NCBI GenBank assembly: GCA_041746255.1
Contig: JBGTHM010000100.1
Location: 120,912 to 184,911 of the forward strand
Direction of reading: 5' to 3'
DNA: 64,000 nt
Source of the DNA: Fibrobacteria bacterium
GTDB lineage: Bacteria > Fibrobacterota > Fibrobacteria > UBA11236
Shown here: positions 963-52,551 of the stretch, piece after piece
How the letters are laid out: each line of letters starts with the position of its first letter
Position numbering within the stretch: the first letter of the stretch is position 1
Made by a program: the position numbers and the translations under genes
The notes under the pieces: model-generated
Database searches by the model: none
The model's input: the letters and a program-made list of their open reading frames with translations, nothing else
Told to the model about the DNA's origin: nothing

Positions 963-1926
963 CCGTCGCGGCGCTCTCTGGGCGCTGGTACTCTGTATTT
1001 TCGGTTTCACCGGAGCGGGCGCGGCTTCCGCCGCGGGAAAGTTGGAGATATCTTCCCAGGTGGACCGCTCCGAAATTACCGTGGGCGACCGCATCGTCTA
1101 CACCATCACCGTGCAATATCCGGAAAATGGGACTGTCGAGCTGCCGTCGGTGCTGGGAAATCTCGGCGCCTTTGAAGTGAAGGAATACGGGGTGACCCCC
1201 GCGGAAACCAGAGATGGCCGCGTCTCGCAAACTTGGCGCTTCAGCCTGTCCACCTTTACCCTGGGAGATTTCACCCTTCCTCCCCAGCGAATCGATTTCA
1301 TGGAAGGCGACGGAAAACTGCGCACCACCCACTTTACCCAGCCTATCGAAATCACGGTCAAGCGCACCTCACCCGAAGGAGCCAAGACCATAGCGGATAT
1401 CGCCGACTTGGCCGACATTCCCCAAGCGCCTCCCTGGGGCCTTATCGCCTTGGGAGCCCTGCTTGCCCTGGCAGCAGGCCTATGGGTCTGGCGGTCCAGG
1501 CGGAATCGGTCAGGCGCTTCCGACAAATCCATTCCTCGGTTGCCCCCCTATGAAGAGGCTTTGGAGCACCTCTCCCGATTGAACGCAACCCAGTCGGTCC
1601 GGCAAAACCAGGCGCGGGAATTGTGTTTCGCCCTGTCTGAGATTTTACGGCGTTATGTGTCCCGACGGTTTACCGTCAACGGGTTGGAGGCCACCACCGA
1701 AGAATTCCTGCAACGCACTGCTGATCTTCCGGTGGACGTACCCCACCGCCGCTGGCTCGGGGATTTCTGCAGCCGCACCGATTTGGTCAAATTTGCGAAC
1801 CTGAACCTGTTGGAAACCGAGGCCAACCAACTCATGCGCGAATTGCGGGAATTCCTCGATGCCACCCGACCGGCGCCCGAAACCCCCTCGGCATCTCCCT
1901 CCTCGAAGGGAGTGGCCCAAGCGTGA
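952..1926 (+). CDS. Bat-operon membrane protein (BatD-like N-terminal Ig domain, one TM helix, cytoplasmic helical domain)
   Basis: Signal peptide, VDRSEITVGD, TM segment WGLIALGALLALAAGLWVW, then LSEILRRY..EATTEE..DLVKFA motif. Sits between DUF58 and batA. Confidence 0.8.
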   Translation: MGTDRRGALWALVLCIFGFTGAGAASAAGKLEISSQVDRSEITVGDRIVYTITVQYPENGTVELPSVLGNLGAFEVKEYGVTPAETRDGRVSQTWRFSLSTFTLGDFTLPPQRIDFMEGDGKLRTTHFTQPIEITVKRTSPEGAKTIADIADLADIPQAPPWGLIALGALLALAAGLWVWRSRRNRSGASDKSIPRLPPYEEALEHLSRLNATQSVRQNQARELCFALSEILRRYVSRRFTVNGLEATTEEFLQRTADLPVDVPHRRWLGDFCSRTDLVKFANLNLLETEANQLMRELREFLDATRPAPETPSASPSSKGVAQA

Positions 1927-2921
1927 TGTGGCCCACCTTTAACAGTCCCTGGTTTCTGCTGGGACTGCTGCTGATTCCCCTGTTGTTGTGGCGATACATT
2001 CGCTTAAGCGGCCGAAAGGAAGCGGGTATCCGCTTCCCCAGCCTGGGCATCATCAAACGTATTCCCAAGGGAACCTTCTACCATTTGCGCCATAGCCTTA
2101 TCGCCCTGCGCCTGGCGGCTATAGCCTTTATCGTCATCGCCCTGGCGCGTCCGCAATACGGGGAATCCCTGGAAGAGGTGACCACCTCGGGCGTGGACAT
2201 CGTGCTCATCCTGGATGTTTCCACCTCCATGAAAGTCATGGATTTCAAACCCAAGAACCGCTTGGTGGTCGCAAAACAGATTCTGGAGGACTTCATCCTG
2301 GGCCGCAGGCATGACCGTATCGGCCTGGTGGTGTTCGCCGGAAAAAGCTACACCCAAAGCCCCCTTACCCTGGACTACGGTATCCTTGTCCAATTTTTAC
2401 GTTCCGTCGATTTCGGAATTGTCGAGGACGGCACGGCCATCGGCACCGGGATACTGAACGGCGTGAATCGCCTTAAGAGCAGCGACGCCAAAAGCAAGGT
2501 GGCGGTGTTGCTCACCGATGGGGAAAACAACGCAGGGGAAGTCAGCCCCATGATGGCCGCCAGGGCCGCCAAAGCCATGGGAGTCAAGGTACATACCATT
2601 GGCGTGGGCAAGGACGGCGATCAGCCCATGGAAATCGACGATCCGGTTTTCGGGAAACGTATCGTCAGCGTGCCCACGAAAATGAACGAAGAGGAGTTGC
2701 TTGAAATCGCGACGCTTACGGGCGGGCAGTATTATCGCGCGCAGGATCCCGAGGCGTTGCGGAATATATTCGCGGCCATCGACGAATTGGAGAAAACCGA
2801 AATCCATACCACCACTTATAACCGTTACCATGAGCTTTTTTACAATTTGCTTCTGGTTGCGCTCGGCCTGCTTTTCGCGGAAATCATTCTCGCCAATACA
2901 AGGTTCATGAAAATCCCATGA
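1923..2921 (+). CDS. batA: BatA VWA-domain membrane protein
   Basis: N-terminal F..PW.L TM pair, LARPQ, MIDAS DVSTS, GTAIG, LLTDGENN. Confidence 0.92.
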   Translation: MMWPTFNSPWFLLGLLLIPLLLWRYIRLSGRKEAGIRFPSLGIIKRIPKGTFYHLRHSLIALRLAAIAFIVIALARPQYGESLEEVTTSGVDIVLILDVSTSMKVMDFKPKNRLVVAKQILEDFILGRRHDRIGLVVFAGKSYTQSPLTLDYGILVQFLRSVDFGIVEDGTAIGTGILNGVNRLKSSDAKSKVAVLLTDGENNAGEVSPMMAARAAKAMGVKVHTIGVGKDGDQPMEIDDPVFGKRIVSVPTKMNEEELLEIATLTGGQYYRAQDPEALRNIFAAIDELEKTEIHTTTYNRYHELFYNLLLVALGLLFAEIILANTRFMKIP

Positions 2922-3943: not shown

Positions 3944-4839
3944 ATTCTTCCCACCGTTATCCCATGTATTTCAAGATGCCTTATCCGCTCACTATGGCCG
4001 TGTGCCTTTCCATCACCATCGCTTTCTCTCAGGAAGCGTCTCCCGGCGAGGAAAATCGCGCCGCCCGTCATGAAGCGGGTGAGCAATGGAAGTCCACCTC
4101 GGGCCCGGAAAGAATATGGGAGAAAATCCTGCAATCCTTTCTCCTCAAACCGACGCCTGCCAAAGCCGGTAAGCGCGCCTATGTCGCGGAAGATTATGCC
4201 ACGGCACTGCGGAAATACACGGAAGCCGGATTCGACCATCCCGGTTCGCAATCGCTGGCATATAATACGGGAAACGTCCATTACCGCCAGGGCCGCTTCG
4301 ACGACGCCGCCCGTCATTTCGAGGAAGCGCTGAAAGGGACCAATGCGACCCTGGCCGCTAATGCCTATTACAATCTCGGCAATGTCTTTTTCCGGAAAGG
4401 GGAAGCGGCCGGGGAAGGAGGCGCGGAAAAAGCTTTAGCGGAATTTCGCGAAGCCTTGGCGCATTACAAAAAGTCCCTGGAAATTAAGCCCGAAAACGCC
4501 GAAGCCAAACGAAACATCGAAGTGACGCAGGCCCGTATCAAGGAGTTGCTGGAACAGCAGCAGCAAGATCCATCCCAGGGGGGCGGGGAGCCGCCTCCGG
4601 AGCCAAGCGAACGCGCTAAACAAATTCTGGCTCGCGCCATGCAACTTTCGGCGCAACGCAAATATTCCGAGGCCAAAAGCCTGCTGGAAGCGATAATTCG
4701 CGAAGACGAAACCGCCGCGAGTTTCAAATCGCATGTACAAAGGATTCAGGATGTACTCGATTTGCTGAGCGGTAAGATGCCGACTCCTCCCGAGTCCGGC
4801 GATCCACGCGCAAGACAAGAGGGGTTGGGTGTGATATGA
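3940..4839 (+). CDS. batC: BatC-like TPR protein
   Basis: TPR motifs (YNTGNVHYRQG, YYNLGNVFF, EAKRNIE). Start placed at ATG 3940, which overlaps the batB TGA, rather than at ORF-track 3847. Confidence 0.8.
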   Translation: MNSSHRYPMYFKMPYPLTMAVCLSITIAFSQEASPGEENRAARHEAGEQWKSTSGPERIWEKILQSFLLKPTPAKAGKRAYVAEDYATALRKYTEAGFDHPGSQSLAYNTGNVHYRQGRFDDAARHFEEALKGTNATLAANAYYNLGNVFFRKGEAAGEGGAEKALAEFREALAHYKKSLEIKPENAEAKRNIEVTQARIKELLEQQQQDPSQGGGEPPPEPSERAKQILARAMQLSAQRKYSEAKSLLEAIIREDETAASFKSHVQRIQDVLDLLSGKMPTPPESGDPRARQEGLGVI

Positions 4840-5411
4840 AAAGCCCCGCCTTTTTTCCCAAATCCCTGTCACTCCTATTTCTGGTCCTCGCTGGGGCGCT
4901 TTGCGCCAAATCGGCGGATATGTATTTCCACGGCGGAGGACATAAATATGTGCAGGGACGCATCCAGGAAGCTTCCATCGAAATCGAGGAAGGCGTGCGG
5001 GCACATCCTCAGGACAAGCGACTGACGGACTTTGCGGAATATCTACGAAAACTGAAAGACGAACAAAAGCAACAAGACGGCGATCAGCAACAGAATAAGC
5101 AAGAGCAACAAGAGGGTCAAGACCAGGAGAAACCGGAAGATTCGGGCGAACAGGACCGGCAACAAGATAAACCGCCGGAAGACAAACCCGAGGATCAAGA
5201 AGGGAAATCCGATCCGAAGCCCGATGAAGGTTCAGAAAAACCGGAGGAGGAAAAGCCCAAGCCCGATGCCGCCCGGCCGCAACCGCAGCCCGGCGAAATG
5301 TCGGAGGAGGAGGCGGAACGTTTGCTGAGGGCTTTTGAAGCCGACGAAAAAGAGCAACGGAAAAAGGCGCCTGCGCCCGCACAAAGAGGGGGTGGCGATG
5401 TGGATTGGTAA
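4836..5411 (+). CDS. Exported protein with Q/E/D/K/P-rich linker and BatC-type C-terminal motif
   Basis: Own signal peptide, low-complexity acidic linker, MSEEEAERLLRAFEADEKE...DVDW tail resembling BatC C-termini. ATGA overlap with the previous gene. Confidence 0.75.
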   Translation: MKSPAFFPKSLSLLFLVLAGALCAKSADMYFHGGGHKYVQGRIQEASIEIEEGVRAHPQDKRLTDFAEYLRKLKDEQKQQDGDQQQNKQEQQEGQDQEKPEDSGEQDRQQDKPPEDKPEDQEGKSDPKPDEGSEKPEEEKPKPDAARPQPQPGEMSEEEAERLLRAFEADEKEQRKKAPAPAQRGGGDVDW

Positions 5412-7206
5412 TCGACGGCCACGCATGCGCGTATCCCGGTTCGGCTTCGCTTTCCTGGCCATTCTATTTACGGTTCATCTGGCTTCAGCCGATTTTACCG
5501 CGGACGCGACCATTTCCACCAATCATGTGGGAACGGGCGAGCCGTTTCAGCTTTCGGTGCAAGTGGGGGTTACCAACGAAGATACCGATCTTCCCTGGCC
5601 CATCGTGGAAAACCTGGAACCCTTCACAGTCGCCAAGGGCTCAACCACCGCCCAGTCCTCGGAAACCACCATCATTAATGGACGCATCACCCGCAGAAAC
5701 CGTTTTATCACCACCTTCACCTATACCTTGACCGCTGCGCAACCGGGTAATTTCCACATCGGACCCATCCGATACCGGTATGCGAATTCGGAACGTAACC
5801 TGGGCAGTACCACGGTACAGGTGGTCAAACGCGAGCCGGGTATCCGGCTGATTCCCAGCCTGAATAAATCCTCCGTCTTCGTAGGGGAGCAGTTGGTCTA
5901 TACGCTGCGCATCATTCCCGGTCCCGGCGTGCAGAAAATCTCCCGCCCGGAAATCCAAAAGCTTATCGGCGACAAGTTCTGGTTCCAACATCTGGACGAT
6001 AAAATCGATTCAAAAATCGTGAAAATCGGCGGTGAAGATACCCGCGTCTTCGACGTGCGCATCGTGCTTTTTCCCTTGCTGGCCGGAGCAGTCGACTTGC
6101 CGGGCATTCCGGTGGAATATGAACAGGCTACGCGCACCCGGCGACGCACCGGATCGGTTTTCGATTTCTTCGAAGACGATTTTTTCGGAGGAGCGGCGCA
6201 ATCCCTTTCCGCCACCAGCCACGGACTCAAATTAAAGGTCGAACCTTTGCCCTTGCCCTCTCCCGACGGCTTCTCCGGAGCGACGGGCAATTATAGCCTG
6301 TCGGCGCAGGTCGATAAATCATCTCTGCCTTCCGGCGACGCCTTTACCCTTACGGTCACCATCAAAGGCGACGGACAGCCCAAATCCATTACCCAGCCGC
6401 AACTACCTGATTTAGGCGATTTCGAACTTTACGATCCCGAGGTAACGGAAAAAACCCAGGTGCAGGGGTCTACCCTCATTACTACCAAAACATTCAAATA
6501 TGTCCTGGTCCCGCGCCGTAGCGGATCCCGGAAAATCGACCCTTTGCAATTCCACTATTTCGACCCGAAAAAAGGCCGCTACGCTTCCGCCTCCTCGGAA
6601 ACCATCCCCATCGAAGTCACACCGGGCAAGGATTTGGCCGAACCGGCGGGTGTGGTGTTATCGCAGCGGGAAATCACGGAACTGGGATCCGATATCCGGC
6701 ATATCAAATCGGCTGGCGCGCCCCTGGCCATGGAAAACGGTTTTCTGCATAAGCGTTGGGGATTCTGGCTGCTTTTCGTCTTCCCCCCTCTGGGCTTTTT
6801 CGCCCTGCTGTGGCAAGGCAGGCGCCGCGCCAGGCTGGATTCCGACATCGGCCTGAGACGGAGACTCGGAGCGGGATCCGAATCGAGAAAGCGATTGCAA
6901 TTGGCGCGTAAAGCCCTGGAAGGCGAGGATGCGCGTGAATTCCATCGCTTGCTTTCGTCGGCGCTTCAGGGTTACCTCTCGGATAAACTCGTCACGGAGT
7001 TCAAAGGCATGACGAGCGGACAGGAGCGGGATAGGCTCATGGCGGCGGGCGTATCCGAGAATACGCGCTTGCTTTATGACAAATTACGGCAACAATGTGA
7101 TTTCGCACAATTCGCCGGCGCGCGTTTCGATAAACAAACCTTGCAAAAAACCTATGCGGAAGCCGAAACCGTCTTGAAAAGCCTGGACAAGGAGATACGC
7201 GTATGA
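5398..7206 (+). CDS. batD: BatD family protein
   Basis: Signal peptide, repeated BatD Ig-like domains (FSGATGNYSL..VDK; YFDPKKGRY), DIRHIK, TM helix. Start is ATG 5398 or 5425. Confidence 0.88.
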   Translation: MWIGNRRPRMRVSRFGFAFLAILFTVHLASADFTADATISTNHVGTGEPFQLSVQVGVTNEDTDLPWPIVENLEPFTVAKGSTTAQSSETTIINGRITRRNRFITTFTYTLTAAQPGNFHIGPIRYRYANSERNLGSTTVQVVKREPGIRLIPSLNKSSVFVGEQLVYTLRIIPGPGVQKISRPEIQKLIGDKFWFQHLDDKIDSKIVKIGGEDTRVFDVRIVLFPLLAGAVDLPGIPVEYEQATRTRRRTGSVFDFFEDDFFGGAAQSLSATSHGLKLKVEPLPLPSPDGFSGATGNYSLSAQVDKSSLPSGDAFTLTVTIKGDGQPKSITQPQLPDLGDFELYDPEVTEKTQVQGSTLITTKTFKYVLVPRRSGSRKIDPLQFHYFDPKKGRYASASSETIPIEVTPGKDLAEPAGVVLSQREITELGSDIRHIKSAGAPLAMENGFLHKRWGFWLLFVFPPLGFFALLWQGRRRARLDSDIGLRRRLGAGSESRKRLQLARKALEGEDAREFHRLLSSALQGYLSDKLVTEFKGMTSGQERDRLMAAGVSENTRLLYDKLRQQCDFAQFAGARFDKQTLQKTYAEAETVLKSLDKEIRV

Positions 7207-7988
7207 AAATCCGGGCCATTACTGCATTGTGGGCCGTTTTGCTCGCGGTAGGCGCCGTGATTTTCATGTCTCCGAGCGTAGCGCGCGCCGATGCGCAGCG
7301 AGCCCATGAGCAATTCCTTGCGGGTAACCAGGCCTATGAAGCCGGTGAGTTCCAAATGGCGGTGGATGCCTACCGCCGCGCGCTGGATGAAGGTTTGGTG
7401 AACAGTCGTCTCTATTACAACTATGGGAATGCCCTTTATCGGTTGAACCGGCTAGGCCCAGCCATTCTCTACTATGAAAGGGCGCTTAAACTCACGCCCC
7501 ATGACGACGACATCCGGCACAACCTCCGATTCGCCAACGCCCGCATCGTCGATAAACCGTCGGAGCCGGCCTCGAACGCGCTGACCCGCTTTCTCTGGAA
7601 GGTCCATGCCGGGTACTCGCTCAATCAGGGACTTTGGGCGTCCTTGGCCCTATTTTCCCTCATTTTCCTGTTCGCGGGCTTGCGAACCTACCTTCCGAAC
7701 TGGAAAGCCTTATGGACAATGGCACTGGTAGCGTGTCTACTGGCCATTGTGAGCTTCGTACCTTCCTTGACCTATCGCATATACGTGACGGAAGCCGCCC
7801 GGCATGCCGTGGTTTTGGAGCCCACCCTGAATTTATACAGCGGTCCTGGTCGGAATTATGAGCTCCTGTCCAAAATCCACGAGGGGACCAAAGTGGAAGT
7901 GACCAGCGCGAAAGACGATTGGGCCCTCATTAAGCTGTCCAATGGTCTCGGAGGTTACGTTACTTTAGATGCTTTAGGACGCATATAG
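7203..7988 (+). CDS. batE: BatE TPR + SH3b protein
   Basis: YYNYGNALYRLNRLGPAILYYERAL, two TM helices, C-terminal SH3b (SGPG..IHEGTKV..W.LIKLSNGLGGYV). Confidence 0.9.
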   Translation: MKIRAITALWAVLLAVGAVIFMSPSVARADAQRAHEQFLAGNQAYEAGEFQMAVDAYRRALDEGLVNSRLYYNYGNALYRLNRLGPAILYYERALKLTPHDDDIRHNLRFANARIVDKPSEPASNALTRFLWKVHAGYSLNQGLWASLALFSLIFLFAGLRTYLPNWKALWTMALVACLLAIVSFVPSLTYRIYVTEAARHAVVLEPTLNLYSGPGRNYELLSKIHEGTKVEVTSAKDDWALIKLSNGLGGYVTLDALGRI

Positions 7989-8118
7989 TTTCCGTTCTAC
8001 CCCCTGTTTTTCGCAAAATCATCCCTTATTGTCTCAAAATCCCCCGTTAGGGGCGAGAATTGAGTTCTTTGGAGCCCCCGCGGATTGCTCTTTTCCCGGG
8101 CAAGACCAATGTGACTTT

Positions 8119-8146
8119 TTGAAATGACCTTTTTCGGGAGTATATT
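8119..8146 (+). promoter_or_regulatory. Candidate sigma70-type promoter for the fibro-slime gene
   Basis: TTGAAA (8119-8124), 16-bp spacer, TATATT (8141-8146) in the intergenic region. Confidence 0.35.
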
Positions 8147-8353
8147 TCACTCATAATCAGCTTGAGTACCCGTAAAAACGCCAATTCCGGATGAAATCCT
8201 AAGGTTGGGTAGAGTTATAATCAAGTAGGCGTATCCTAAAGCTGATTGGGGATTCCAATGAACACATCAAAGCAAACGACCTTGCCGCAAGGCAAGACTG
8301 AAGTATCCACCTGCTTACCTGGTACTCCAAAAATTATTATCAAGGAAATTGGC

Positions 8354-11300
8354 ATGAAATTGACCGTAGTGGGACTAACCCTCTTCGCGTTTTGCACCGG
8401 CGCTTTGGCGCAGAATAATCCTCCCTCCACTATCACCCTGCAAGCCAAACTGCGCGACTTCAAAGAAAGTCCCGATCTCGGCAAGGTGGTTGCGGGTCAT
8501 CACCCCCATTTCAATGCTTGCGCGAGTACCGGATTGGCCGCGGGAAACATTGAGACTCAAATCAATGTGAATGGTCAATCAGATCCCCGATTTGAAGGAG
8601 ATAATCGCAATCCCAAGTTGAAAGTTCCCCTGAATTCCAATGCATGCCTTACCCCCGTCGAACGTTTCGAAGATTGGTTCAACGACAAAAGCTCCGACAT
8701 AAACCGTGCCTTTCTCACCGAACTCCAATTTGTGCGTAATGATGTTACAGGTATGTACGAATACGGCAACAGCGCCTACTTTCCCCTGAATAATGGAAAA
8801 CTGAACCAGGCGGGTGGATACACAAAATTCGACCCAAGCGATCCCAACCCGTTCGGACACTTACAAAGTGGAATTGTGAATAACATTGATCTTTCAAGCC
8901 GTAACTATGGTTTTACTCTGGAAATGCATACCAGCTTCGCATATCATGCCGGCGAAGGGCAGACCTTTCTTTTTCGCGGCGATGACGATGTTTGGGTGTT
9001 CATAAACGATAAATTGGTAATTGATTTGGGAGGAATTCATTCAGCCTTGGAAAGAGTCGTGAACCTGGACAATCTGGCCGCACAACTCGGACTTGTAGAC
9101 GGTGAAAATTATCCCCTCGACTTTTTCTTTGCGGAACGACGTGTCACTCAATCCAACCTTTTCATCACTACCAGTCTGGCCTTGGCTCAGCCATCGATTG
9201 TCGATAATATCACCGCATCCCCACCGGGCCACACCTTCCCTATTCAAACCCAGGTGACCCTGTCTACCCCGACTCCTGAGGTAACCATACGCTATACGAT
9301 TGACGGCAGCACTCCCGACAGCACCAGCACCATCTACACCGGCCCCCTCACTTTCATCGAAACCACCATCCTAAAAGCCATAGCCTATAAGGCCGGCTGG
9401 TTACCAAGCGAAGTGTTGACCGAGACTTATACCAAGGTTGCACCCAAGAGTAGTCTGCAAATCCTGAACGCTACAGGCCAACCCTTCGCCTCGGGCTATC
9501 TCACCCAAAATGACAATGCTTTCACCGTCCAGGTCACCACGTACCAGGCCGGACTCACCTCCATCTCCCCCACTTCGGCCACACAAATCAAAGGAGATAA
9601 CCTCACACTCACCCTCTCCAATCCTGTCATCGGCAATACCATCGTGTATACCGGGACTGTTCCTTTCAAATCCAGTGACGATCCGGTATCTATTGCCAAT
9701 ACACTGGAGGCTGCCTTTTACGACACGGTAACGGTAACCTGGGTCAATCCCAGCGATCCCACCGATATCGCCACCGCCAAAATGCCGGTACGAGCGGCTC
9801 CGAAACAGGCAACGGCCTATTTTTCCACCAACCCCCAGGGAACAGACACTACGGACACCTATGTGGGAACAGAAGCCTTCCTCTATATCATCATCGATGA
9901 CCAGATTCTGCCTCCCGGGGCCGGCCAAGTTACCCTGACCACCACTCCTTTTTTGGGAGGCCAGCCCGACAATCTTATCCTGCCCCTGACCCCGGTTGCG
10001 GGAACGCCTGGACGCTATAGCGCCACCATCCCTACAGACCTGCTTAACCCCGTGAATACAGCGGACGGCTTGTTACAACTGGCGCTGCAAGACGAAATAA
10101 AAGCCACCTACCAGGATCCCACCTCACCGACGGAGCCTCCCGCCATAGCTAATGCCGGGTTCGGCATCAAACCCGAAATTACCGCCCAATTCGAGTTTAC
10201 TGATGCGAATTACGTTCCCTTACCCCCCGGAATCCACTGGAGCCCCACCGAAGGTTTCATCTACCTTCGTTACCGCGACGACGTTTTTGACGGCTCCATT
10301 ACCACTAAGCAACTGAATGTGGTGGTAACCAACAACCAGGGTAAGGCTAAAGGCGATGAAGAAAAATCCACCCTCGTTCTCACCCTCAATCCCGGCGCCA
10401 CCCAGCAATCCACCGGATTCTGGTTCGGAAAATTTCCACTCAAAGATCTGCCCAATCCCGGCCTCGAGAATTCGATTGTGGAGACCTATATCCTGGGTGA
10501 GGTCACGGTAAGCGTTCCTACGCATAACAAATTAGGGACGGCAGGCCCGAATATCACGACCCAGCTTCGGGTTGCCTATCCCGATGAGAACGAAGTACTG
10601 GCCCTAGTGAATACCGCGGATCCCGTCGCCGAAATTGAACGGGCCACCAACTCGATAACCGTAATCATCAAGGACCAGACTTATTCGTCGGTGCAGGACA
10701 CCATCTTCGCCGACATGAGTTGCACCAATTCCGGAGATATTTTACGGAATGTCCGCCTGATCGAATCCGACACGCAACCCGGAACCTACACCTCGGCGCC
10801 CGTCGCAAAAAACGAGGGAAGCGTCGATACGGGCGACTTGGTCTTGACCTGCAAGGATACGGATGAAATCAAGCTGCAATACACCGATCAAGTTTACGGA
10901 AACATTCGCGAAATCGTGGTTCCCTTCGGTGGTCAGAGCGTCAATCTCAAACTCTATTATACCGAAAAGGATAAAACCCAGCCTATATCCTTCATCCGCG
11001 TCTCGCAGGGAAATTCCTTTATGGCCTGGGTGGAAGGACACAGCCCCCGGGTCAATCAAATCGATACCATCGCCATTTCCTTCACCACGGAGCAAGGGGA
11101 GAATGAAACATTTTACGCCGTGGAAACCGGACCCTTCACCCAGCTTTTCAAGGTTGAGGTTCCTTTCGCTTTCGTAGACGGAAAACCCACCGTCAACAAC
11201 AAGATTATCGATGCTCAACTCGTCAGCCAAACTTCCCTGGGGAGAGTGGTGGTAACCGGTAAGGTAACCCATAACGGTGTTACCCGTGAAGCGACAATCG

Positions 11301-12592
11301 TTCTGCAATCCGAATTCATCCTGGCCACCACCGCATATATCAAGGACGAGAATGGTAACGGCCGCGGTGATAAGGTGTACATCGTTTTCGAAAGCCCGTT
11401 AGCCGAATTGCCTGCGCAACTGGACAGCGTCTACTGGAACGAAGCCAAAAAGGAATTCGTCCAGGTCGCCGGAAAAAGCCGCCTCTCCTTTTTGGAAGGC
11501 AGCAACAATACAGTTGTAGTCGCCGATTTTACCGATTCGGAGTTCGGAGAAAACCTGACCTCCATTCCCGCAGGTGCGAACCCTTATGTCCTGCTCCCCG
11601 ATAACCTGGTTTTTCTGGGGCAGAAAGTCGCCATCGCCGATTCGATCGGGCCGGTAATCATTACCGCGGTGAAAAAACCCGCTGACCTTACCAACCCCAA
11701 CTCCAGCAATCCTGAATTCAATCTCGATACCTTGGTGGTAAAGCTTTCTGAGCCTATCACGACCCAAACCGATTGGAACGAACTCCTGCGATTTTCGACG
11801 GACTGTAAGGATTACACCAATAGTTTCGTAATCAAGCCGAACGGAGACCCGGTTTTCGGAGACGGCGGCACTACCGTCACCATAGTAATCAACAATGCCG
11901 ATGGAAAATCCCCTCAACCTGGAAATTGCCTGTTCCTGAACACCGATGGACGCTATACCGACAAAGTCGGAAACATCCCGCCCGAGAAGGGGGTTAAGAT
12001 TACAGGAGAGCCTGCCAAGCTGATATTGCAGGGCCTGCGGGGCTTCCCTCCCGTAGCCGGAATGGATCCGAGTAAGAACCCCGATAAATTCATCTTCGCC
12101 ATAAACGAGAAAATATCCGATACGGAAAACCCGAAGGGTTATACCGTTAAGGATGGCGACTCGCGTGTTGTGAATTGGATTCCTCCGGTGGAATGGCAAA
12201 AGAATTCAACCTTCCGACCCTTCATACCCGACAAGGTAACCGACGGCAGTCAGGGAGGCGATAATACTGGGATTCAGCCCATGCCTGTGAATGAGGTCAG
12301 CGCCGTCCAGGTTATTACCACGGGTAAATACATCGCCCACATAAACCTTTTCGACCATCTGGGAAACTTCGTAAAATCGTGGAGCCAAGCTTTCGGCTAT
12401 CGAGGCGAATTGGCCAACCGGGACCGCATTGTTCCCAAGGGATTGGTAAGTTACCTGGTATGGGACATGAAGGACCATCGGGGCCAAAGGGCCGGACAGG
12501 GTGCTTATGTTTGGAAGGTGATTTTCACCTTCGAAAGCAACAAGCAGGAAGTCCGATATATCCGTACTGGAGTACTCAGAAGCGACGACTGA
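8354..12592 (+). CDS. Fibro-slime (PA14-like) domain surface protein with chitobiase-type domain, Ig-like stalk and C-terminal sorting-like domain
   Basis: LRDF..HPHF, NYGFTLEMH, FRGDDDVWVFINDKLVIDLGGIH, LDFFFAER fibro-slime motifs; IRYTIDGSTP chitobiase motif. ATG 8354 has an AAGGAA RBS and is followed by a signal peptide. Confidence 0.9.
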   Translation: MKLTVVGLTLFAFCTGALAQNNPPSTITLQAKLRDFKESPDLGKVVAGHHPHFNACASTGLAAGNIETQINVNGQSDPRFEGDNRNPKLKVPLNSNACLTPVERFEDWFNDKSSDINRAFLTELQFVRNDVTGMYEYGNSAYFPLNNGKLNQAGGYTKFDPSDPNPFGHLQSGIVNNIDLSSRNYGFTLEMHTSFAYHAGEGQTFLFRGDDDVWVFINDKLVIDLGGIHSALERVVNLDNLAAQLGLVDGENYPLDFFFAERRVTQSNLFITTSLALAQPSIVDNITASPPGHTFPIQTQVTLSTPTPEVTIRYTIDGSTPDSTSTIYTGPLTFIETTILKAIAYKAGWLPSEVLTETYTKVAPKSSLQILNATGQPFASGYLTQNDNAFTVQVTTYQAGLTSISPTSATQIKGDNLTLTLSNPVIGNTIVYTGTVPFKSSDDPVSIANTLEAAFYDTVTVTWVNPSDPTDIATAKMPVRAAPKQATAYFSTNPQGTDTTDTYVGTEAFLYIIIDDQILPPGAGQVTLTTTPFLGGQPDNLILPLTPVAGTPGRYSATIPTDLLNPVNTADGLLQLALQDEIKATYQDPTSPTEPPAIANAGFGIKPEITAQFEFTDANYVPLPPGIHWSPTEGFIYLRYRDDVFDGSITTKQLNVVVTNNQGKAKGDEEKSTLVLTLNPGATQQSTGFWFGKFPLKDLPNPGLENSIVETYILGEVTVSVPTHNKLGTAGPNITTQLRVAYPDENEVLALVNTADPVAEIERATNSITVIIKDQTYSSVQDTIFADMSCTNSGDILRNVRLIESDTQPGTYTSAPVAKNEGSVDTGDLVLTCKDTDEIKLQYTDQVYGNIREIVVPFGGQSVNLKLYYTEKDKTQPISFIRVSQGNSFMAWVEGHSPRVNQIDTIAISFTTEQGENETFYAVETGPFTQLFKVEVPFAFVDGKPTVNNKIIDAQLVSQTSLGRVVVTGKVTHNGVTREATIVLQSEFILATTAYIKDENGNGRGDKVYIVFESPLAELPAQLDSVYWNEAKKEFVQVAGKSRLSFLEGSNNTVVVADFTDSEFGENLTSIPAGANPYVLLPDNLVFLGQKVAIADSIGPVIITAVKKPADLTNPNSSNPEFNLDTLVVKLSEPITTQTDWNELLRFSTDCKDYTNSFVIKPNGDPVFGDGGTTVTIVINNADGKSPQPGNCLFLNTDGRYTDKVGNIPPEKGVKITGEPAKLILQGLRGFPPVAGMDPSKNPDKFIFAINEKISDTENPKGYTVKDGDSRVVNWIPPVEWQKNSTFRPFIPDKVTDGSQGGDNTGIQPMPVNEVSAVQVITTGKYIAHINLFDHLGNFVKSWSQAFGYRGELANRDRIVPKGLVSYLVWDMKDHRGQRAGQGAYVWKVIFTFESNKQEVRYIRTGVLRSDD

Positions 12593-46403: not shown

Positions 46404-47495
46404 ATGAAAAATCAAATTTTTACTTTCGGAATCGGGATGTTTTTGGCCACTTCCGTTTTTTCCCAAGAGCTATACCAGGTAATCGGAACGGATCATTCTT
46501 GGAAATATATCATCGACAATAAATTGATTCCGCAAAACATCAATTCGACTCAAGGATTAACCGGTTCGAAAGTAGTAGTGAACCAACAAATAATGTCGAA
46601 ATTAACCTATGCGAAATATTCAATCACCAATAAAATCAGAATACACACCCCGGGTAACAGCCAAATTTCTCGCCCGGATTTCGACAAATGGTCGCGATGG
46701 TATCAAGAGGACGGCAATACCCAAGTTTTTCGCCTATTCCAAGGTGAATATAATGTCCGTAATACACGCAGCGCCTCCGCAAGGACGGAAGCCTTCAGTG
46801 ATTTCAGTTGGAAAAAAGGAGCTTGGCAGGAATGGGTCGGCTCTTATACTATCGTGAATCCCAAGGGATGCGTGGGTCCTCATTTCTGTAGCCTACTACA
46901 GGTGAAAGCACCTGATGTGGATTGGGGCGTGATGATACGTCTGGACCAGAACGGCGACGTTATTATCGATCACCGGAGATCCGGACAGAGTAAAACCGTA
47001 TTAAAGGACATGACAGGAAAAAGCTTTGATCTCAGGGTCAGAGATAACGGAAACAATTACGAGGTCTATTTTAACGGGAACCTTGAAGGCACGGGCAATT
47101 ATGATCGGGGAAGTCGAGAATCCTCCTTCCGATGGGGGCTTTATATGGGTGCCAGCATCCCTAAGGAAGAAATTCTGGTGTTTGTTACCGGGGCTACGGT
47201 AAATCCAAGTAACTCGGCCGTACCCTACTCCTTAAGTTTGCACCCTTTTGGCGGCATTAACCCGAGTTCCGAGTATTCAATCGCCTCATCGCCGGATGGA
47301 GTCCATTTCAGCGCGAAGAAATATCCCGTAGATATCTCATTGAGAAACATCCATGGCCGCGAAATTTGGAAAAAAAGAAATGTGACTTCCACAGAAAGAA
47401 TTTTCGCCGGAAGGCTTCCACCGGGCTTGATTTATGGCATAATCACCAGCCAAGGTCGGAATTCCGAAGTCATCCCCATTTCCTGGACGAAATGA
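46404..47495 (+). CDS. Secreted PL7-like (jelly-roll) polysaccharide lyase homolog
   Basis: Signal peptide, ARTEAF, LLQVK, YEVYFNG, FRWGLY, sorting-like tail. Confidence 0.6.
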   Translation: MKNQIFTFGIGMFLATSVFSQELYQVIGTDHSWKYIIDNKLIPQNINSTQGLTGSKVVVNQQIMSKLTYAKYSITNKIRIHTPGNSQISRPDFDKWSRWYQEDGNTQVFRLFQGEYNVRNTRSASARTEAFSDFSWKKGAWQEWVGSYTIVNPKGCVGPHFCSLLQVKAPDVDWGVMIRLDQNGDVIIDHRRSGQSKTVLKDMTGKSFDLRVRDNGNNYEVYFNGNLEGTGNYDRGSRESSFRWGLYMGASIPKEEILVFVTGATVNPSNSAVPYSLSLHPFGGINPSSEYSIASSPDGVHFSAKKYPVDISLRNIHGREIWKKRNVTSTERIFAGRLPPGLIYGIITSQGRNSEVIPISWTK

Positions 47496-47583
47496 CACGA
47501 GGGTAACCCGCAATACGAAAAAGTCTGGGGTATCAACAAGCCTTCCGGCTCTATCGGATGGAGTGTTAAAGTGAAAAATGTAT

Positions 47584-48792
47584 TTATTCCTGCCTTTTCC
47601 AATTCAGACTGACTACAAAACTTCTTTCATTTTTGTTACCCGAAAGATAATCAAGATCGGAAAGCGACCCGGACAAAGATAAAGTCGATGCCAGAGGGCT
47701 GGAACCCAATGAGTATTCAACCTCAAAACCGAACTCATTCCCTTCCAAGTGGCCCAGCCGAATGTCACCCGTATACCAACCCTCGCGAGCCGTATAAGAC
47801 GTGCGGTAGAAATCCGCCGGTAGCTGGTAATAGTATTTGTGCCTGGGTGTGATCAACCAGCGCTTCCCGATTTCAACCGGTATGGCTGTTTCCGGAATCC
47901 AGGCCTTGATGCCCCAGGAATCGAAGTAGCCACCCTGACAATGAAAGGCGGCGATGCCGAAACCCAGATAAGCACCCATTTCAATTGCCCCCACCTGACG
48001 GTAGCGGGTATCAGGCAGGCGTTCCGGAAAAAGCGTGGTGATGATTCGAGCGCGGCGGTAGGGATTTTCCAAAGTGCCCGCCAGCATGGAAAAGGCGTAT
48101 GAAACGCCGGCTTGCACTCGCGGAGACAAAAGCTGCCCCACCTGAGCCCCAGCCGCAAGTCGGATAGCTGCCGCCGGCCAAAGGTCGGCCTCACCCGGTG
48201 GCGGATCAGTTGGAACACTGTAATCCAAGCCACCGCCGAGGAAACCGGATATCGCTGTGTTGCGTTGGAACAATTCCTTACCACCGCTAACAGCGGCCAT
48301 GCTGGAATGAAAATCGGATTCTCCGGAATAGCGCAAAGAACCCGCCAGCGAAGCCGGATTGCTTCCCTGCCAATTCCGACGTAAAGAAAGAGTCGCTTCG
48401 CCTCTGGCTTCGCCTGTACCATGATGCCCATGCGCGCGAATAGATGCGCCGGATACAGCATCAACGTCCGTCGAGGCTCCGCCCGGATCGTGGCCACCAT
48501 GATCACCGTGGTTGTGTCCCGCATGGGGATTGGAAGTATCGGGCACCCCAGGGATGCGGATCCATTCTCCGAGCGCTTTGATGCCTAATCGCCAATCCGG
48601 CGCCAGGGGAAATCCGAATTTTCCCTCGACGGTGGATACCAGCTGACCTGATCCGTCCCAGTATTGGGAGGTCAAGACTTCTTGCCCAGTGAGAGAGACG
48701 CCGGTTTGCCCAGTTACGCCGGGAGGAAAAATGGCGACGGCCAAAAAACCCGCCGCCAAGAATAATTGACTGCGATCCAAATCAACCGACAT
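47584..48792 (-). CDS. DUF3570 family outer-membrane protein with flavinylation motif and His-rich insert
   Basis: VDAVSGAS, ESDF, QRNT, G.LENPYR, ERLPDTR, DSWGI, YYYQ..ADFY, GDIRL; amphipathic strands. Confidence 0.82.
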   Translation of the reverse strand: MSVDLDRSQLFLAAGFLAVAIFPPGVTGQTGVSLTGQEVLTSQYWDGSGQLVSTVEGKFGFPLAPDWRLGIKALGEWIRIPGVPDTSNPHAGHNHGDHGGHDPGGASTDVDAVSGASIRAHGHHGTGEARGEATLSLRRNWQGSNPASLAGSLRYSGESDFHSSMAAVSGGKELFQRNTAISGFLGGGLDYSVPTDPPPGEADLWPAAAIRLAAGAQVGQLLSPRVQAGVSYAFSMLAGTLENPYRRARIITTLFPERLPDTRYRQVGAIEMGAYLGFGIAAFHCQGGYFDSWGIKAWIPETAIPVEIGKRWLITPRHKYYYQLPADFYRTSYTAREGWYTGDIRLGHLEGNEFGFEVEYSLGSSPLASTLSLSGSLSDLDYLSGNKNERSFVVSLNWKRQE

Positions 48793-48797
48793 ACATA

Positions 48798-50177
48798 TTA
48801 CTCAAGGGGTCCATAATGATGGCTGGGACCGTCATGTTCGTGCCATGTCGCCAACGTTCTGGGATTGGCCCGCACCGTGAGGGCTTTAGTGACCTTACCC
48901 GCGGCAGCGTCAATCTGCGTCACCGTGCCGTCAAGGTTATTGGCCACGAAAAAGTATTTATCATCCCCGCTCAAGCACTCGCCGTGATGGCTTCGGCTTT
49001 TACCGATGTCCAGCGAAGCGATTTGGATCGGGTTGGCCAGATCGGTGATGTCGAGCACCAGGTGTTTTGCAGCCGAACCCGTGGGATCGGTGAACCCGGA
49101 AGCCAGTTGCACATACAGCTTGTTACCGGCGATCTTGATATGACCCGGTCCCGCCGTGGCCTCCGGCTTGCCGAGGATGGATTCGGTGCAATTCGGTCCG
49201 GTGTATTTGACCGCGACTTCCTTCACCACGCTATCGACCTGGGCGTCGATCACCACGATTTGCCCGACCTGGCAAACGGCCCCGGGCAGCGTGGTATGGC
49301 CTTCGCGCGGGGTGCTTTGCAACGAATAGACATAGCGGCCTTTGCCCTTGGTATAGCCGCCGCCCGACCCTGATGTTTTGAGCAACCGCGCCGTGGGCGG
49401 GTTGGCGTCGATATCCACCGAAATGATGTCGCCGGTGCCGGTGGCGTTGCAATAACCTTTGCCGTTCAAAGCGGAGGTGGCGCAGCCGTGGGGCGCGGCC
49501 GATCCCTGAATGCCCAGGTCATCCGCCGACCAGGCGGCTACTTCGGTGATGGCGGCAGGATTGGAATAATCGTACACACCCAAAACCTTGGCCGCGTCGT
49601 TGATATTTGTGATCACCACGCGATGCCGGCTTTTGCTGAAGCAAGCTTTGTGATGGCCGACGCCGATACCCACCTCGCCAACGACCTTGATCGAGGCGGT
49701 ATCCGAAGGCGTACTCAGGTCGATGAACAGGGCCGAGTTAGCGGCGGCCGTGTTGCCGGTGGAGGGCCCATCGTTCAGGGCCATCCAATACTGCTTGCCG
49801 TCGTATTTAGGCGAGATGTAGGAATGCACGGGGCGCACCGCCTGGCTGCCGGAAAGGGCGGAGGGAATGCGCTTGATTTGCACCATGCTTTTGCCGTTTA
49901 CCACCAATACCTCATTGCGGTTGGTGAGATTCACAAGTAAGGTGCCGTTACTCAGCGACTGGATGTCGGTAGGGCCGGAAACATCGACGATTTCGCCCGC
50001 CTGCTGTTCCCCTGTGGCAATATCATAGGACGTAATCGATCCTTCATGGGCCACGAAGAGCAGATGCTTGTGTTGGTGGGTGTGCCCATGGTCATCGGTT
50101 AAGCAGCCGCTGAACAATGCGGTCGTAAAAATTGCAGGTACAAGAATTATAATCGAAAATAGGAACTGGTGACGCAT
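48798..50177 (-). CDS. His-rich beta-propeller lipoprotein (AztD/YncE-like)
   Basis: GAGGAG RBS before ATG 50177, lipobox FSG-C, DDHGHTHQHKH, PVH, GHHK, PHG, SHHG, FVANNLDGTVTQID, SHHYGP. Confidence 0.75.
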   Translation of the reverse strand: MRHQFLFSIIILVPAIFTTALFSGCLTDDHGHTHQHKHLLFVAHEGSITSYDIATGEQQAGEIVDVSGPTDIQSLSNGTLLVNLTNRNEVLVVNGKSMVQIKRIPSALSGSQAVRPVHSYISPKYDGKQYWMALNDGPSTGNTAAANSALFIDLSTPSDTASIKVVGEVGIGVGHHKACFSKSRHRVVITNINDAAKVLGVYDYSNPAAITEVAAWSADDLGIQGSAAPHGCATSALNGKGYCNATGTGDIISVDIDANPPTARLLKTSGSGGGYTKGKGRYVYSLQSTPREGHTTLPGAVCQVGQIVVIDAQVDSVVKEVAVKYTGPNCTESILGKPEATAGPGHIKIAGNKLYVQLASGFTDPTGSAAKHLVLDITDLANPIQIASLDIGKSRSHHGECLSGDDKYFFVANNLDGTVTQIDAAAGKVTKALTVRANPRTLATWHEHDGPSHHYGPLE

Positions 50178-50205
50178 ATTTGAATCTCCTCGGAAAATAT
50201 TTTTG

Positions 50206-50433
50206 TCATTGTGTGCAGCCGCATCCGCCGCCGGGCGTGCCGCCCGGCAATTCCGCCGCGGTGGCGGTCTGCTGAACCTTGTTGTTGTACTCGTTGCGAA
50301 GTTCATTTCGGGAAAAAGGCGACTGCATGCATTTGCGCGCCAAATCACCCCTTTGATAGGGCAATACCCGGGCGCAATCCATGAGGAACAAAGCCGACAA
50401 TAGCAAAACCAAACTTGAGAATTTTTTCCGCAT
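50206..50433 (-). CDS. DUF4266 family small lipoprotein
   Basis: Signal peptide + C-ARVLPYQRGDLA..CM, C-terminal GGGCGC. AAGGA upstream. Confidence 0.82.
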   Translation of the reverse strand: MRKKFSSLVLLLSALFLMDCARVLPYQRGDLARKCMQSPFSRNELRNEYNNKVQQTATAAELPGGTPGGGCGCTQ

Positions 50434-50480
50434 ACTTCATCCTTCGCGAAATGGGACGGCCAAGCACGCGCCAAATCCAA

Positions 50481-50500
50481 CGCGGATTGCGTAATCCCCG
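50481..50500. promoter_or_regulatory. Palindromic candidate operator upstream of the DUF4266 operon
   Basis: CGCGGATTGCGTAATCCCCG, with core GGATT-GCGT-AATCC about 50 bp upstream of the start codon. Confidence 0.4.
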
Positions 50501-51207
50501 CCTATTTGATGATGGAACTCATGCCAGTGGCGTGAATCAGGCGATGGGAATTTTTTGCAGAAGCTCTTGGAAGGGATCGAGATGTGATTGGACCTGTGAA
50601 CGCAGCCACCCGCTGATCGGATCGGGGATTGGCGGCTGCAAAGGAGTTTCCGGACAGAGCGTCACTATGAATTGCCCCAGCTGTACGTAAATGCCGAAAG
50701 GAGGAATTTACCGTCATGAGATATAATCTAGTTCGGGAATTTGGAAAGTACCTGGAAATTTCCCCCATAAAATATTTTTCCTGTTTAAGATATTCCATTT
50801 TTAAAGACTGAGAGATTCCCGCTTCCGAAACCGGGTGAACAAATGCGCGTTCTGGTTTTCATCTTCAATTTTACGGGGTAAAACGTGCACCCAATGCACC
50901 GTTAAAGGGATCGTAGGTTGGAATAGCGCCCGCCAAGTTCCTAACCCAATGGCGACTCCGCCAACCACCTCCTGCACAGGCGTTGAATTCGGGCCGGCAG
51001 TTTTCACTAACACTACTGCTCCAAGAAAAGGGATGAATTGGCCGGAAGAAAATTTCTCGTAAAACCTTCCAAAATCCTCTCTCAGGGAAGAATTCGTTGC
51101 CTGGCTAATATCTTAAACAACTTTTCAAACAAATTCGCCCCCAAAAACTTTTTGGACGGTAAGTTTAATCCATAAATAATCCATTAACCAAAAAATTGGG
51201 GTTGGAA

Positions 51208-52551
51208 ATGGGAAAATTCGTTACTCTTCGCAGATTGATGTATTCGTTGACAATAGTGCCGCTCTGCCTGGCTTCAATCGGGTTCGCGCAAACGACGAAA
51301 AAGATGACCCAACTGGCGCATTTGAAGCTGTCCAAAGCCGGTAATGCGGGTATTTGGGGCTGGGTCGCGCCGGACGGCTCCGAATATGCTTTGCCCACAA
51401 CGCGCAGCGGCGTGGCCGTGGTAAGCCTGAAGGACCCCAAGAACCCGAAGGAACTCTTCCATCTCGATTCGCCGCAAGGCAACTGGCATGAGCTGCTGAC
51501 GGTTAGAAACTATCTGTACAAATGTGCCGAACAAGGGCGTGTCGGCATGCAGATTTGGGATCTTTCCCCCCTTCCCAACGCGAAACCAAAGGAACTTGCG
51601 GGATGGATGGGGGTAAGTACCTGCCATTCCCTTTGGTCCGACACCCTTGTGACTCCGCATCGCCTTTACGTGGAAGGGTCGAATGACACAAAAATCCTAT
51701 CCCTTGCGAATCCCGCCAAACCCGTGCTGGTGGGCACAATCAAGGGCGAAGTTCACGACGGAATGGCCAGGGGGGGGCGGGTATTTATCAGTACGGGGAA
51801 CCGGAAAACCGTCGACATTTTTGACGCAACCGATCCCGCCAGGCCTCAGCTTCTCGGCCGCGCCGCGATTGGAGAAGTCTCCCGGAGTCTTGGGGAGCCT
51901 GCAGGATACTCCCATAACATCTGGCTTACCGACGACAATCGCTATGCCTTCACCACCGAGGAGACCAATGGCTGTACCGTCAAGATGTGGGACATCTCCG
52001 ATATAAAGTCTCCCAAGTTCACCGGAGGAAAGTATCTCGCGGGTCGGGGCATGGCCCACAACGCCTATATTCGCAAGCATCTTCTCTACTTGTCCCATTA
52101 CGGCATGGGAATTCGCGTCATCGATTTCAAGGACCCTAAAAACCTAGTGGAGGTGGCTTTCCACAACCCCGGAGGCTCTTCGTGGGGCTGCTTTCCCTGG
52201 CTACCGTCGGGACTGATCATCCATGGCAATGGTGGATTGAGGGTAGTTGAACCCGATGCCGATATAAAGATCGTGGGAAAGCAAGTGGTTTCCATCTCGG
52301 GCAGACATTCCCTTGGAGGGTTCAAGGTCAACGCCCTGCGGGAGGGAATTAGCTACCAACTACCCGGACAGGGGAGGTACACCCTCTCCATCCTCAATCC
52401 CATGGGAAGGGAGTTGCACTGGGAAGAGGGGACTGGCGCCGTGGGCCTGCGGACCCTGGACATGGGGAGGCAATGGCCATCCGGCAACTACCTAGTGAGA
52501 TTGCACCAGGGTCAGGAGGCCTTCACCGCCCCAGTCACCCTCGGACGATAG
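51208..52551 (+). CDS. Secreted LVIVD-repeat / choice-of-anchor-B-like beta-propeller with sorting-like tail
   Basis: IWGW..PDGSEYA, CHSLW, VHD, SHNIW, TTEE, AHN, SHY..GIRVID, SWG.FP.LPSG. Start is 51208 or 51238. Confidence 0.82.
   Translation: MGKFVTLRRLMYSLTIVPLCLASIGFAQTTKKMTQLAHLKLSKAGNAGIWGWVAPDGSEYALPTTRSGVAVVSLKDPKNPKELFHLDSPQGNWHELLTVRNYLYKCAEQGRVGMQIWDLSPLPNAKPKELAGWMGVSTCHSLWSDTLVTPHRLYVEGSNDTKILSLANPAKPVLVGTIKGEVHDGMARGGRVFISTGNRKTVDIFDATDPARPQLLGRAAIGEVSRSLGEPAGYSHNIWLTDDNRYAFTTEETNGCTVKMWDISDIKSPKFTGGKYLAGRGMAHNAYIRKHLLYLSHYGMGIRVIDFKDPKNLVEVAFHNPGGSSWGCFPWLPSGLIIHGNGGLRVVEPDADIKIVGKQVVSISGRHSLGGFKVNALREGISYQLPGQGRYTLSILNPMGRELHWEEGTGAVGLRTLDMGRQWPSGNYLVRLHQGQEAFTAPVTLGR

Follow-up and report, generated by a model that had tools for sequence, protein, structure and literature searches.

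A conserved form of the DUF4266/DUF3570 flavin-barrel system in which a histidine-lined propeller lipoprotein stands in place of thioredoxin

The three-gene locus

The window analyzed here (the whole 64,000-nucleotide (nt) stretch of contig JBGTHM010000100.1 from a Fibrobacteria bacterium) encodes a small DUF4266 lipoprotein, a β-propeller lipoprotein, and a DUF3570 outer-membrane barrel; we refer to these three genes as the trio. The trio is a conserved, undescribed form of a known flavin-barrel system, in which a histidine-lined propeller is found instead of a thioredoxin, and it probably handles a metal ion. A preliminary description of the window, made from its sequence, had noted three tightly spaced, co-oriented genes; these are present, as follows:

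50206–50433, minus strand: DUF4266 lipoprotein gene, 75 residues (Pfam PF14086, E-value 2.7e-9, 38.3 bits, cut-off 27)
48798–50177, minus strand: propeller lipoprotein gene, 459 residues
47584–48792, minus strand: DUF3570 gene, 402 residues with a signal peptide (Pfam PF12094, E-value 8.4e-18, 64.8 bits, cut-off 25)

The spacers are 28 nt between DUF4266 and the propeller and 5 nt between the propeller and DUF3570. The propeller starts at the ATG at 50177 (MRHQFLF), with a GGAG Shine-Dalgarno sequence upstream; a longer open reading frame (ORF), to 50480, was rejected, as it would overlap DUF4266. All of the motifs quoted in the preliminary description are found in the translations. The DUF4266 protein has its lipobox cysteine at Cys20 and ends in PGGGCGC followed by TQ; the propeller has the lipobox FSGC (Cys25) and the motifs DDHGHTHQHKH, GHHKA, SHHGE, and WHEHDGPSHH. 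Genes for ApbE, a TlpA-like thioredoxin, and DsbD are absent from the window when it is searched with the genome's own copies (phmmer, E ≤ 0.01), which upholds what the preliminary description had said of apbE and thioredoxin; the Pfam matches to ApbE are confined to two other contigs, C95 and C5.

The known system is the ApbE/DUF3570/DUF4266/thioredoxin (plus DsbD) gene cluster that is described in a survey of flavinylation (Meheust et al., 2021, eLife, PMC8238504). The trio shares with these clusters an upstream DUF4266 with a CXC motif, the [S/T]GA[S/T] motif of DUF3570, and a genomic ApbE. It differs in that a 459-residue propeller is inserted between DUF4266 and DUF3570, in that the locus is without thioredoxin, DsbD, and ApbE, and in that its barrel, which belongs to a separate subfamily, keeps one of the two motifs and adds a GH(x)H sequence and docking loops. 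The words ‘propeller’, ‘copper’, ‘zinc’, and ‘barrel’ do not occur in the main text of that survey; among the papers listed in full-text searches for DUF3570 and DUF4266, only the survey deals with them other than in passing.

Conservation and distribution of the trio

We pooled loci from genome contigs (28), metagenome contigs (54), and relatives within the phylum (7) and searched their six-frame ORFs with the genome's own proteins; a scan of the genome contigs with the single propeller sequence gave 65 pattern matches, none confirmed, and was redone with an alignment. The propeller was found at E < 1e-40 in 78 loci, that is, in 57 non-redundant loci after the removal of 21 near-copies, and a locus was considered assessable if it includes at least 450 nt upstream and at least 1000 nt downstream (n = 35). 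The gene order DUF4266-propeller-DUF3570 recurs in 24 of the 35 assessable loci, so the arrangement is not a matter of chance, and the propeller is conserved beside DUF4266 and DUF3570 in other genomes, contrary to one of the refuting conditions named in the preliminary description; ten loci contain neither partner and one contains DUF4266 only. DUF4266 is upstream of the propeller in 34/47 loci and DUF3570 is downstream in 27/40, with both partners present in 26 non-redundant loci overall.

A TlpA-like thioredoxin is encoded by none of these 26 trios, compared with 21 of 28 other DUF3570 loci from the same bacterial family. The latter are the family's 30 best-scoring DUF3570 loci (by Pfam score) minus one from the window's own genome (L003) and one from genome G254 (L120). 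DUF4266 is directly upstream in all 28, and a gene resembling that for hydrazine synthase (HZS) is present in 10; the absence of the propeller from all 28 is partly an artifact of selection, as the loci were ranked by Pfam score and propeller-type barrels score lower. The preliminary description had proposed a variant in which an AztD-type metallochaperone replaces the thioredoxin: a variant with a propeller lipoprotein in that position is real and conserved, but the AztD-type label fits only in part (see below).

The hosts of the trio are metagenome-assembled genomes (MAGs) of Fibrobacterota and Myxococcota, with further copies on metagenome contigs. Within the phylum the propeller is found in 8 of 296 genomes (a tally that takes in G254), all from one family (7/31 besides the window's genome); the only other genome of the window's genus, which is 100% complete, is without it. 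Propellers without partners include those in Hyalangium loci, two alphaproteobacterial loci, one cyanobacterial locus, and L041 (G249:C100:5841-10223; gene at 1498-2883, minus strand), which encodes the closest genomic relative of the window propeller (phmmer E 7e-209).

Other copies of the module, and ApbE, in the same genome

A Pfam scan of the whole assembly identified three DUF4266/DUF3570 pairs and two apbE genes, each pair in a different form. The first, on contig C95 (L009, C95:8001-24000; 4650-11939, plus strand), is canonical and includes DUF4266, DUF3570, a TlpA-like thioredoxin, DsbD_TM, CarboxypepD_reg, ApbE, NusG_II, and Hpre_diP_synt_I; its DUF3570 has two flavinylation motifs. 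The second, on contig C34 (L010, C34:40001-52000; about 5566-9671, minus strand), includes a 741-residue HZS_alpha/PD40 protein (HZS_alpha is the middle domain of the hydrazine synthase α-subunit), a thioredoxin, DUF4266, and DUF3570. The third is the window trio, with the propeller between DUF4266 and DUF3570 and no thioredoxin. The second and third forms both join DUF4266/DUF3570 to an exported protein that contains a propeller; however, the C34-type partner has a heme motif, is encoded upstream of DUF4266, and coexists with the TlpA-like thioredoxin, whereas the trio propeller lacks such a motif, has its gene between those for DUF4266 and DUF3570, and stands in for the thioredoxin.

One apbE gene lies in the C95 cluster. 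The other, on contig C5 (L011:5484-7500), is solitary and divergent from a gene for a 293-residue exported, His-rich protein (GHHDHAE, NHDHGPG). ApbE is also encoded on another contig in all five trio-bearing relatives tested (and in 8 of 14 control genomes), and apbE adjoins 3 of the 26 trios (L031, L061, and L066). The description of the system as lacking ApbE is therefore correct for the window but not for the genome, and the search for apbE elsewhere in the assembly that had been suggested along with it located these two genes. Separately, the gene next after the trio in L025, L026, L029, and L075 encodes a relative (E 5.5e-11) of the 293-residue protein.

The DUF3570 barrel and the DUF4266 lipoprotein

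The DUF3570 protein is modeled as a 16-stranded outer-membrane β-barrel, similar to the export porins PgaA, PelB, and BcsC, which also have 16 strands. Three of its segments, together with the C-terminal tail of DUF4266, are used in what follows:

48418–48531, minus strand: disordered barrel loop with NPHAGHNHGDHGGHD (residues 88–102), DAVSGAS (111–117), and AHGHHG (120–125); predicted local distance difference test (pLDDT) below 50 at residues 84–118 and 120–124
48442–48462, minus strand: ApbE-type motif D111-A-V-S-G-A-S117 of DUF3570
48022–48204, minus strand: predicted docking loops of the barrel, PPPGE (residues 197–201) and the hairpin IITTLFPE (residues 250–257)
50215–50235, minus strand: PGGGCGC tail of DUF4266 (residues 67–73), invariant

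According to the 2021 survey, ApbE flavinylates the Chlorobium luteolum DUF3570 at [S/T]GA[S/T], and two such motifs are reported for ApbE-linked DUF3570s (PMC8238504). Among 25 DUF3570s from trios, D111, A116, and S117 are invariant and G92-H93 is at least 90% conserved; by homology, the trio DUF3570 is presumably flavinylated at Ser117. The GH motif of the flavin loop is missing from the genome's two DUF3570 paralogues. Similarly, P198, G200, F255, and E257 are invariant in the trio DUF3570s and different in the paralogues, so that three motifs of the barrel are specific to trios (GH 92–93, PPG 198–200, and TTLFPE 252–257). In a quick IQ-TREE analysis of 56 DUF3570s, the 25 from trios occupy one side of a branch with a Shimodaira–Hasegawa-like approximate likelihood ratio test (SH-aLRT) support of 100, in a tree that is midpoint-rooted and in which the non-trio sequences are nearly all from one bacterial family. 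Judged from these sequences, the trio barrel is a separate DUF3570 subfamily that appears to co-evolve with the propeller.

In DUF4266, the residues that are invariant among 27 trio sequences are C20, M36, L62, P67, G68–G70, C71, and C73; that is, the C-terminal CXC (C71-G-C73) is kept in 27 of 27. This Cys-Gly-Cys tail may act as a thiol/disulfide relay (or as a carrier of a soft metal) and would, in that case, fill the role that thioredoxin has in the other forms of the system.

The propeller: fold and candidate metal site

No family scores above its cut-off for the propeller in Pfam or NCBIfam scans. Matches to the YncE and YVTN families stay below the cut-offs (NF052280, 20.3 bits with a cut-off of 400; TIGR02276 repeat, 17.1 with a cut-off of 27.85), and the likeness to YVTN repeats is confined to the last blade; in the ESM Atlas, the propeller falls among generic lactonase/YncE-like clusters (0.93–0.95). 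A word-indexed protein search gave 180 proteins at E ≤ 0.001 among 8000 scored candidates, and most of the 119 relatives listed (own protein excluded) are full-length, with 43–71% identity. Searching 1.84 billion representatives with a profile yielded 76 matches at E ≤ 1e-30; about half are long multi-repeat proteins (640 to 3,065 residues) with several matches each, so the true propeller family is small.

The AlphaFold2 model, from a 32-sequence alignment, has eight blades of four strands each (pLDDT 90.8; predicted template modeling score 0.87). NirN is also among its top fold matches, which include the following (match values as reported), and Foldseek is concordant:

8prj_A, designed propeller: 29.9 / 2.5 / 311
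6tv2_A, NirF: 29.2 / 3.6 / 344
6ck1_B, AztD: 28.9 / 3.1 / 329
1aof_A, cd1 nitrite reductase: 28.2 / 3.6 / 353

In an alignment of 52 members, the residues R103, H118, D136, H175, H176, K177, R186, H230, R291, E292, C302, Q303, and C330 are invariant or nearly so, whether or not the DUF4266/DUF3570 partners are present. H118, H175/H176, and H230 are located on the innermost (first) strands of blades 3, 4, and 5 of the model, and these four invariant histidines on three blades suggest a central metal site. C232 and C243 co-vary, switching together to (S/A/V/T, H), and from this pattern they look like a disulfide pair.

The preliminary description called the propeller AztD-like. As described by Neupane et al. 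(2019, PMC6689063), AztD binds one zinc at the pore residues His124, His167, and His218, beside a Cys214-Cys231 disulfide, and has a second (transfer) site formed by H99, H102, D104, and a C-terminal His. The trio propeller has the exported, eight-bladed fold of AztD (PDB 6CK1, 6CMK, and 6N01), and the spacing of its histidines is similar; however, the identity in the fold match is 14%, the trio propeller has a fourth invariant histidine, and its partner is an outer-membrane flavin barrel. The eight-bladed fold stands, but NirF, cd1 nitrite reductase, and a designed propeller match it about as well as AztD does. Neither sequence nor profile searches linked the two: the six PDB sequences matched by a 32-sequence propeller profile (all PDB, E ≤ 10) do not include AztD, and the NCBIfam matches at E ≤ 0.1 include no AztD model. 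An equivalent of the second site is not recognizable as a conserved motif in the propeller family, and the ORFs scanned next to trios, in the window and in the other loci, encode no aztABC-type ABC transporter and no AztC- or ZnuA-type binding protein.

The preliminary description also pointed out the His-rich tail that follows the lipobox:

50064–50096, minus strand: His-rich N-terminal linker DDHGHTHQHKH of the propeller (residues 28–38), pLDDT below 50, variable in the alignment

This tail is not conserved as a feature of the family and is specific to a subgroup: over the 30 residues that precede aligned position 40, the histidines number at least five in the window, L027, L056, and L061 (four in L067), and the tail occurs together with the C-terminal WHxH only in the window, P0009, P0014, and P0015. 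Because they are limited to few members, the tail and WHxH are accessory.

The same residues and folds bear on the main rival to metal handling, namely that the propeller is an enzyme (a metallo-oxidoreductase or a hydrolase) whose substrate is a small molecule other than a metal and that DUF4266/DUF3570 is a general electron-delivery module for varied propeller enzymes. The trio would in that case be a further pairing of an enzyme with the flavin barrel instead of a route for metal trafficking. We regard this as rather unlikely but deserving of serious attention: the top fold matches include enzymes (NirF, NirN, and cd1 nitrite reductase); the conserved R103, D136, K177, R186, R291, E292, Q303, and Q306 accompany the histidine cluster and would fit an active site; the C34 copy in the same genome pairs the module with an HZS_alpha/PD40 protein and a thioredoxin, a heme-propeller form for which such an arrangement seems to hold, and HZS-like genes recur in the comparison loci; and orphan propellers would suit an enzyme with alternative partners. 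Against this, the propeller has no cofactor motif such as CxxCH, and no enzyme family scores above threshold.

A modeled complex of the propeller and the barrel

The three-protein complex prediction proposed in the preliminary description was run with the three mature chains together and the propeller as the scored partner (three runs and three controls). The propeller docks on the barrel with an interaction prediction score from aligned errors (ipSAE) of 0.82 in each of the three runs, compared with 0.00, 0.01, and 0.02 in the controls; the runs share at least 62% of contacts, and the partner pLDDT is at least 91. The score mark is attained by 116 of 157 solved complexes and by 2 of 215 mismatched pairs, a calibration outside which our custom alignments and three-chain set-up fall. 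The interface is formed by residues 198–202, 247, 250–256, and 335–336 of the barrel and residues 49, 57–65, and 97–100 of the propeller; that is, in the model the propeller contacts the barrel by the side of blades 1–2, on the same face as the flavin loop. This interface coincides with two of the trio-specific invariant motifs (PPG and TTLFPE), which we take as independent support for the docking.

The docking loops and the flavin loop all follow odd-numbered strands of the barrel. In the usual topology of such barrels, the termini and short turns are periplasmic and the long loops are outside; by analogy, we infer that the docking and flavin loops are on the extracellular face.

Such a placement invites comparison with lipoprotein-capped barrels. 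BtuG is a seven-bladed, cobalamin-binding propeller; its partner BtuB, a TonB-dependent transporter, has 22 strands and a plug. In BtuG-BtuB (PDB 8BLW and 8BMX), as in the trio model, a propeller lipoprotein caps the long-loop face of an outer-membrane barrel, and other lipoprotein-capped barrels are comparable; no sequence relation was found between the trio and BtuG-BtuB. The propeller might then serve as a lid that captures a ligand, with the barrel as a pore for diffusion or export, with a flavin site that is vestigial or regulatory and without electron transfer. The likeness of the barrel to PgaA, PelB, and BcsC and fold matches of the propeller to the B12-binding surface lipoproteins BtuG2 and BT1954 (Foldseek E about 4e-10 to 4e-9) agree with this idea, which we nevertheless consider improbable: the flavinylation serine and its aspartate are invariant in 25 of 25 trio barrels, which argues against a vestigial site, the CXC tail of DUF4266 is invariant, and the BtuG matches score below the eight-bladed ones.

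The modeled interface also bears on the possibility that the trio consists of neighbors without a joint function and that the docking is an artifact of modeling. The propeller is alone in 10 of the 35 assessable loci, and the complex score is a measure of model confidence obtained with alignments outside the calibration. However, the gene order is kept across two phyla, the barrels of trios form a separate subfamily, the interface falls on motifs that are invariant in that subfamily, and the controls do not exceed 0.02, so we consider a lack of joint function very improbable.

Genome neighborhoods of trios and orphan propellers

The ORFs on the flanks were compared with Pfam (one batch of 20 ORFs in part), and recurrent partners were counted by phmmer in the 26 trios, as follows:

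TonB-dependent receptor: 5/26 (L012, L014, L017, L059, L074), plus a weak partial match in L026
Multicopper oxidase: 2/26 (L027, L077)
YtkA-like protein: 2/26 (L020, L036)
CDF exporter: 1/26 (L027)
PilS-like histidine kinase with HTH_8 response regulator: 4/26 (L020, L022, L036, L054)
Membrane-anchored Cys/His-rich protein: 8/26 (L015, L025, L026, L029, L031, L061, L066, L074)

The Cys/His-rich protein (without a Pfam match; with motifs, e.g., CxCxHGPEVPCDCPHH ... PPCH) is encoded between DUF4266 and the propeller or just 5' of DUF4266 (among others, L066:7337-7930, L015:702-1232, L061:7302-7874, L031:3950-4435, and L025:6049-6519); it is not encoded by the window's genome. Pfam scans of these proteins and of the conserved flanks of the Fibrobacterota loci gave only a weak PA14 match. 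Taken across the trios, the neighbors point to metal handling, with copper slightly ahead. The preliminary description had envisaged a TonB-independent route, a designation that is unsupported; TonB-dependent receptor genes flank 5 of the 26 trios.

These neighborhoods also speak to the enzyme alternative: no recurrent substrate-specific genes were found among the flanking ORFs scanned, and metal handling is a better fit than catalysis on a non-metal substrate for the Cys/His-rich protein as well as for the trio's His tails, GH(x)H loop, and Cys-Gly-Cys tail.

Three further contexts were observed. In the myxobacterial loci L016, L019, L020, L022, L036, and L054, a PilS-like kinase and a Response_reg/HTH_8 protein are encoded directly upstream of the propeller or the trio, whether or not DUF4266 and DUF3570 are present. 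On a cyanobacterial chromosome (L028:3004-8314), an orphan propeller follows MbnP, an MbnH-like di-heme peroxidase, a cytochrome c, and a TPR protein, a copper-linked context. In a Nitrospira MAG (L037:4573-11122), a distant propeller (27% identity) is encoded upstream of DUF4266-DUF3570; this set has two thioredoxins on its flanks and precedes a MerR regulator and an HMA-domain protein.

A proposed function for the trio

Our preferred reading, which we hold tentatively and at somewhat less than even odds, is that the products of the trio form a single outer-membrane complex in which a covalent flavin is paired with a protein-held metal ion. ApbE, encoded elsewhere in the genome, would attach flavin mononucleotide (FMN) to Ser117 on the flexible GH(x)H loop of the barrel. 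The propeller would dock by blades 1–2, and its central channel, lined by the four invariant histidines on three consecutive blades, would be the likely site for a transition metal. Electrons would be exchanged among thiols of the periplasm, the barrel flavin, and the propeller-held metal, and the metal (copper is our best guess, with zinc next) would then undergo reduction and capture and be passed on at the cell envelope.

Several observations weigh against this proposal. Every step of the mechanism, including flavinylation of the window copy, metal binding, which metal is bound, which way electrons flow, and what the trio does in the cell, is one that we infer from the computed gene order, conservation, folds, motifs, and docking. 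For the metal, the equivalence between the histidine sites of AztD and the propeller is one of spacing and blade position only; of the other histidines, H346 is His or Tyr and H398 is variable, so neither is invariant; and the invariant polar and charged residues listed above could mark the active site of an enzyme instead of a carrier. Metal-related neighbors occur in a minority of trios, and none was found among the flanking ORFs scanned beside the window trio. For the flavin, the trio DUF3570s have one flavinylation motif, the first of the two reported motifs being missing in all of them (the C95 paralogue has it as DVVTGAS), and the source of electrons for the module lies outside the locus. 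For the complex, the ten loci without partners indicate that the propeller can work without the barrel; in L041, for example, the 1.5 kb to each side of the propeller gene contain neither DUF4266 nor DUF3570, and residues 346 and 177 of the protein are Tyr and Met, respectively. To these we add that the complex model lists no confident contact between the propeller and DUF4266, which is not evidence either way.

A bolder version of the proposed flavin–metal complex, by analogy with porin-cytochrome systems, is that the trio forms a cytochrome-free electron conduit across the outer membrane, in which a metal-bearing surface propeller would be fed by the periplasmic Cys-Gly-Cys lipoprotein through the flavin of the barrel. 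We think this doubtful; if true, flavin and thiols would do in this conduit what cytochromes do in the MtrCAB porin-cytochrome system, and the conduit would serve to reduce and capture extracellular copper or iron.

The trio gives DUF3570, a family without an assigned function, a defined, modeled partner with a probable metal site that is kept in two phyla. The 2021 survey found just two new substrates of ApbE, and DUF3570 is one of them (PMC8238504). The trio also has the fewest parts of any form seen in this analysis (three genes, with ApbE in trans) and may be the simplest system in which to study the function of the flavin barrel. Targets for mutation are Ser117 and the hairpin 247–256 of the barrel, His118, His175, His176, and His230 of the propeller, and Cys71 and Cys73 of DUF4266; the trio could also show whether cytochromes can be replaced, in electron transfer at the envelope or in the uptake of metals, by thiols together with a covalently attached flavin and a metal bound to histidines.

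Sequence context of the window trio

In the Pfam scan of flanking ORFs, the neighbors of the trio in the window are related to carbohydrates only. An Rfam scan of 47000–52000 gave no matches at E ≤ 1, which indicates that there is no riboswitch in the 760-nt gap upstream of the trio, and a consensus scan for promoters and terminators gave one promoter-like and five terminator-like sites, which is not above the level of shuffled sequence. The G+C content of the bin 48001–50000, inside the trio, is 58.6%, compared with 46.5% and 51.0% in the adjacent bins, within a surrounding stretch (42–56 kb) of lower G+C; this increase and the patchy distribution of the propeller in the family (including its absence from the other genome of the genus) hint at lateral acquisition of the trio. 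Elsewhere in the window, a long open frame (8246–12589, plus strand) is similar to a 332-residue protein encoded upstream of the trio in L025/L026 (E 4.6e-56; weak PA14 match).

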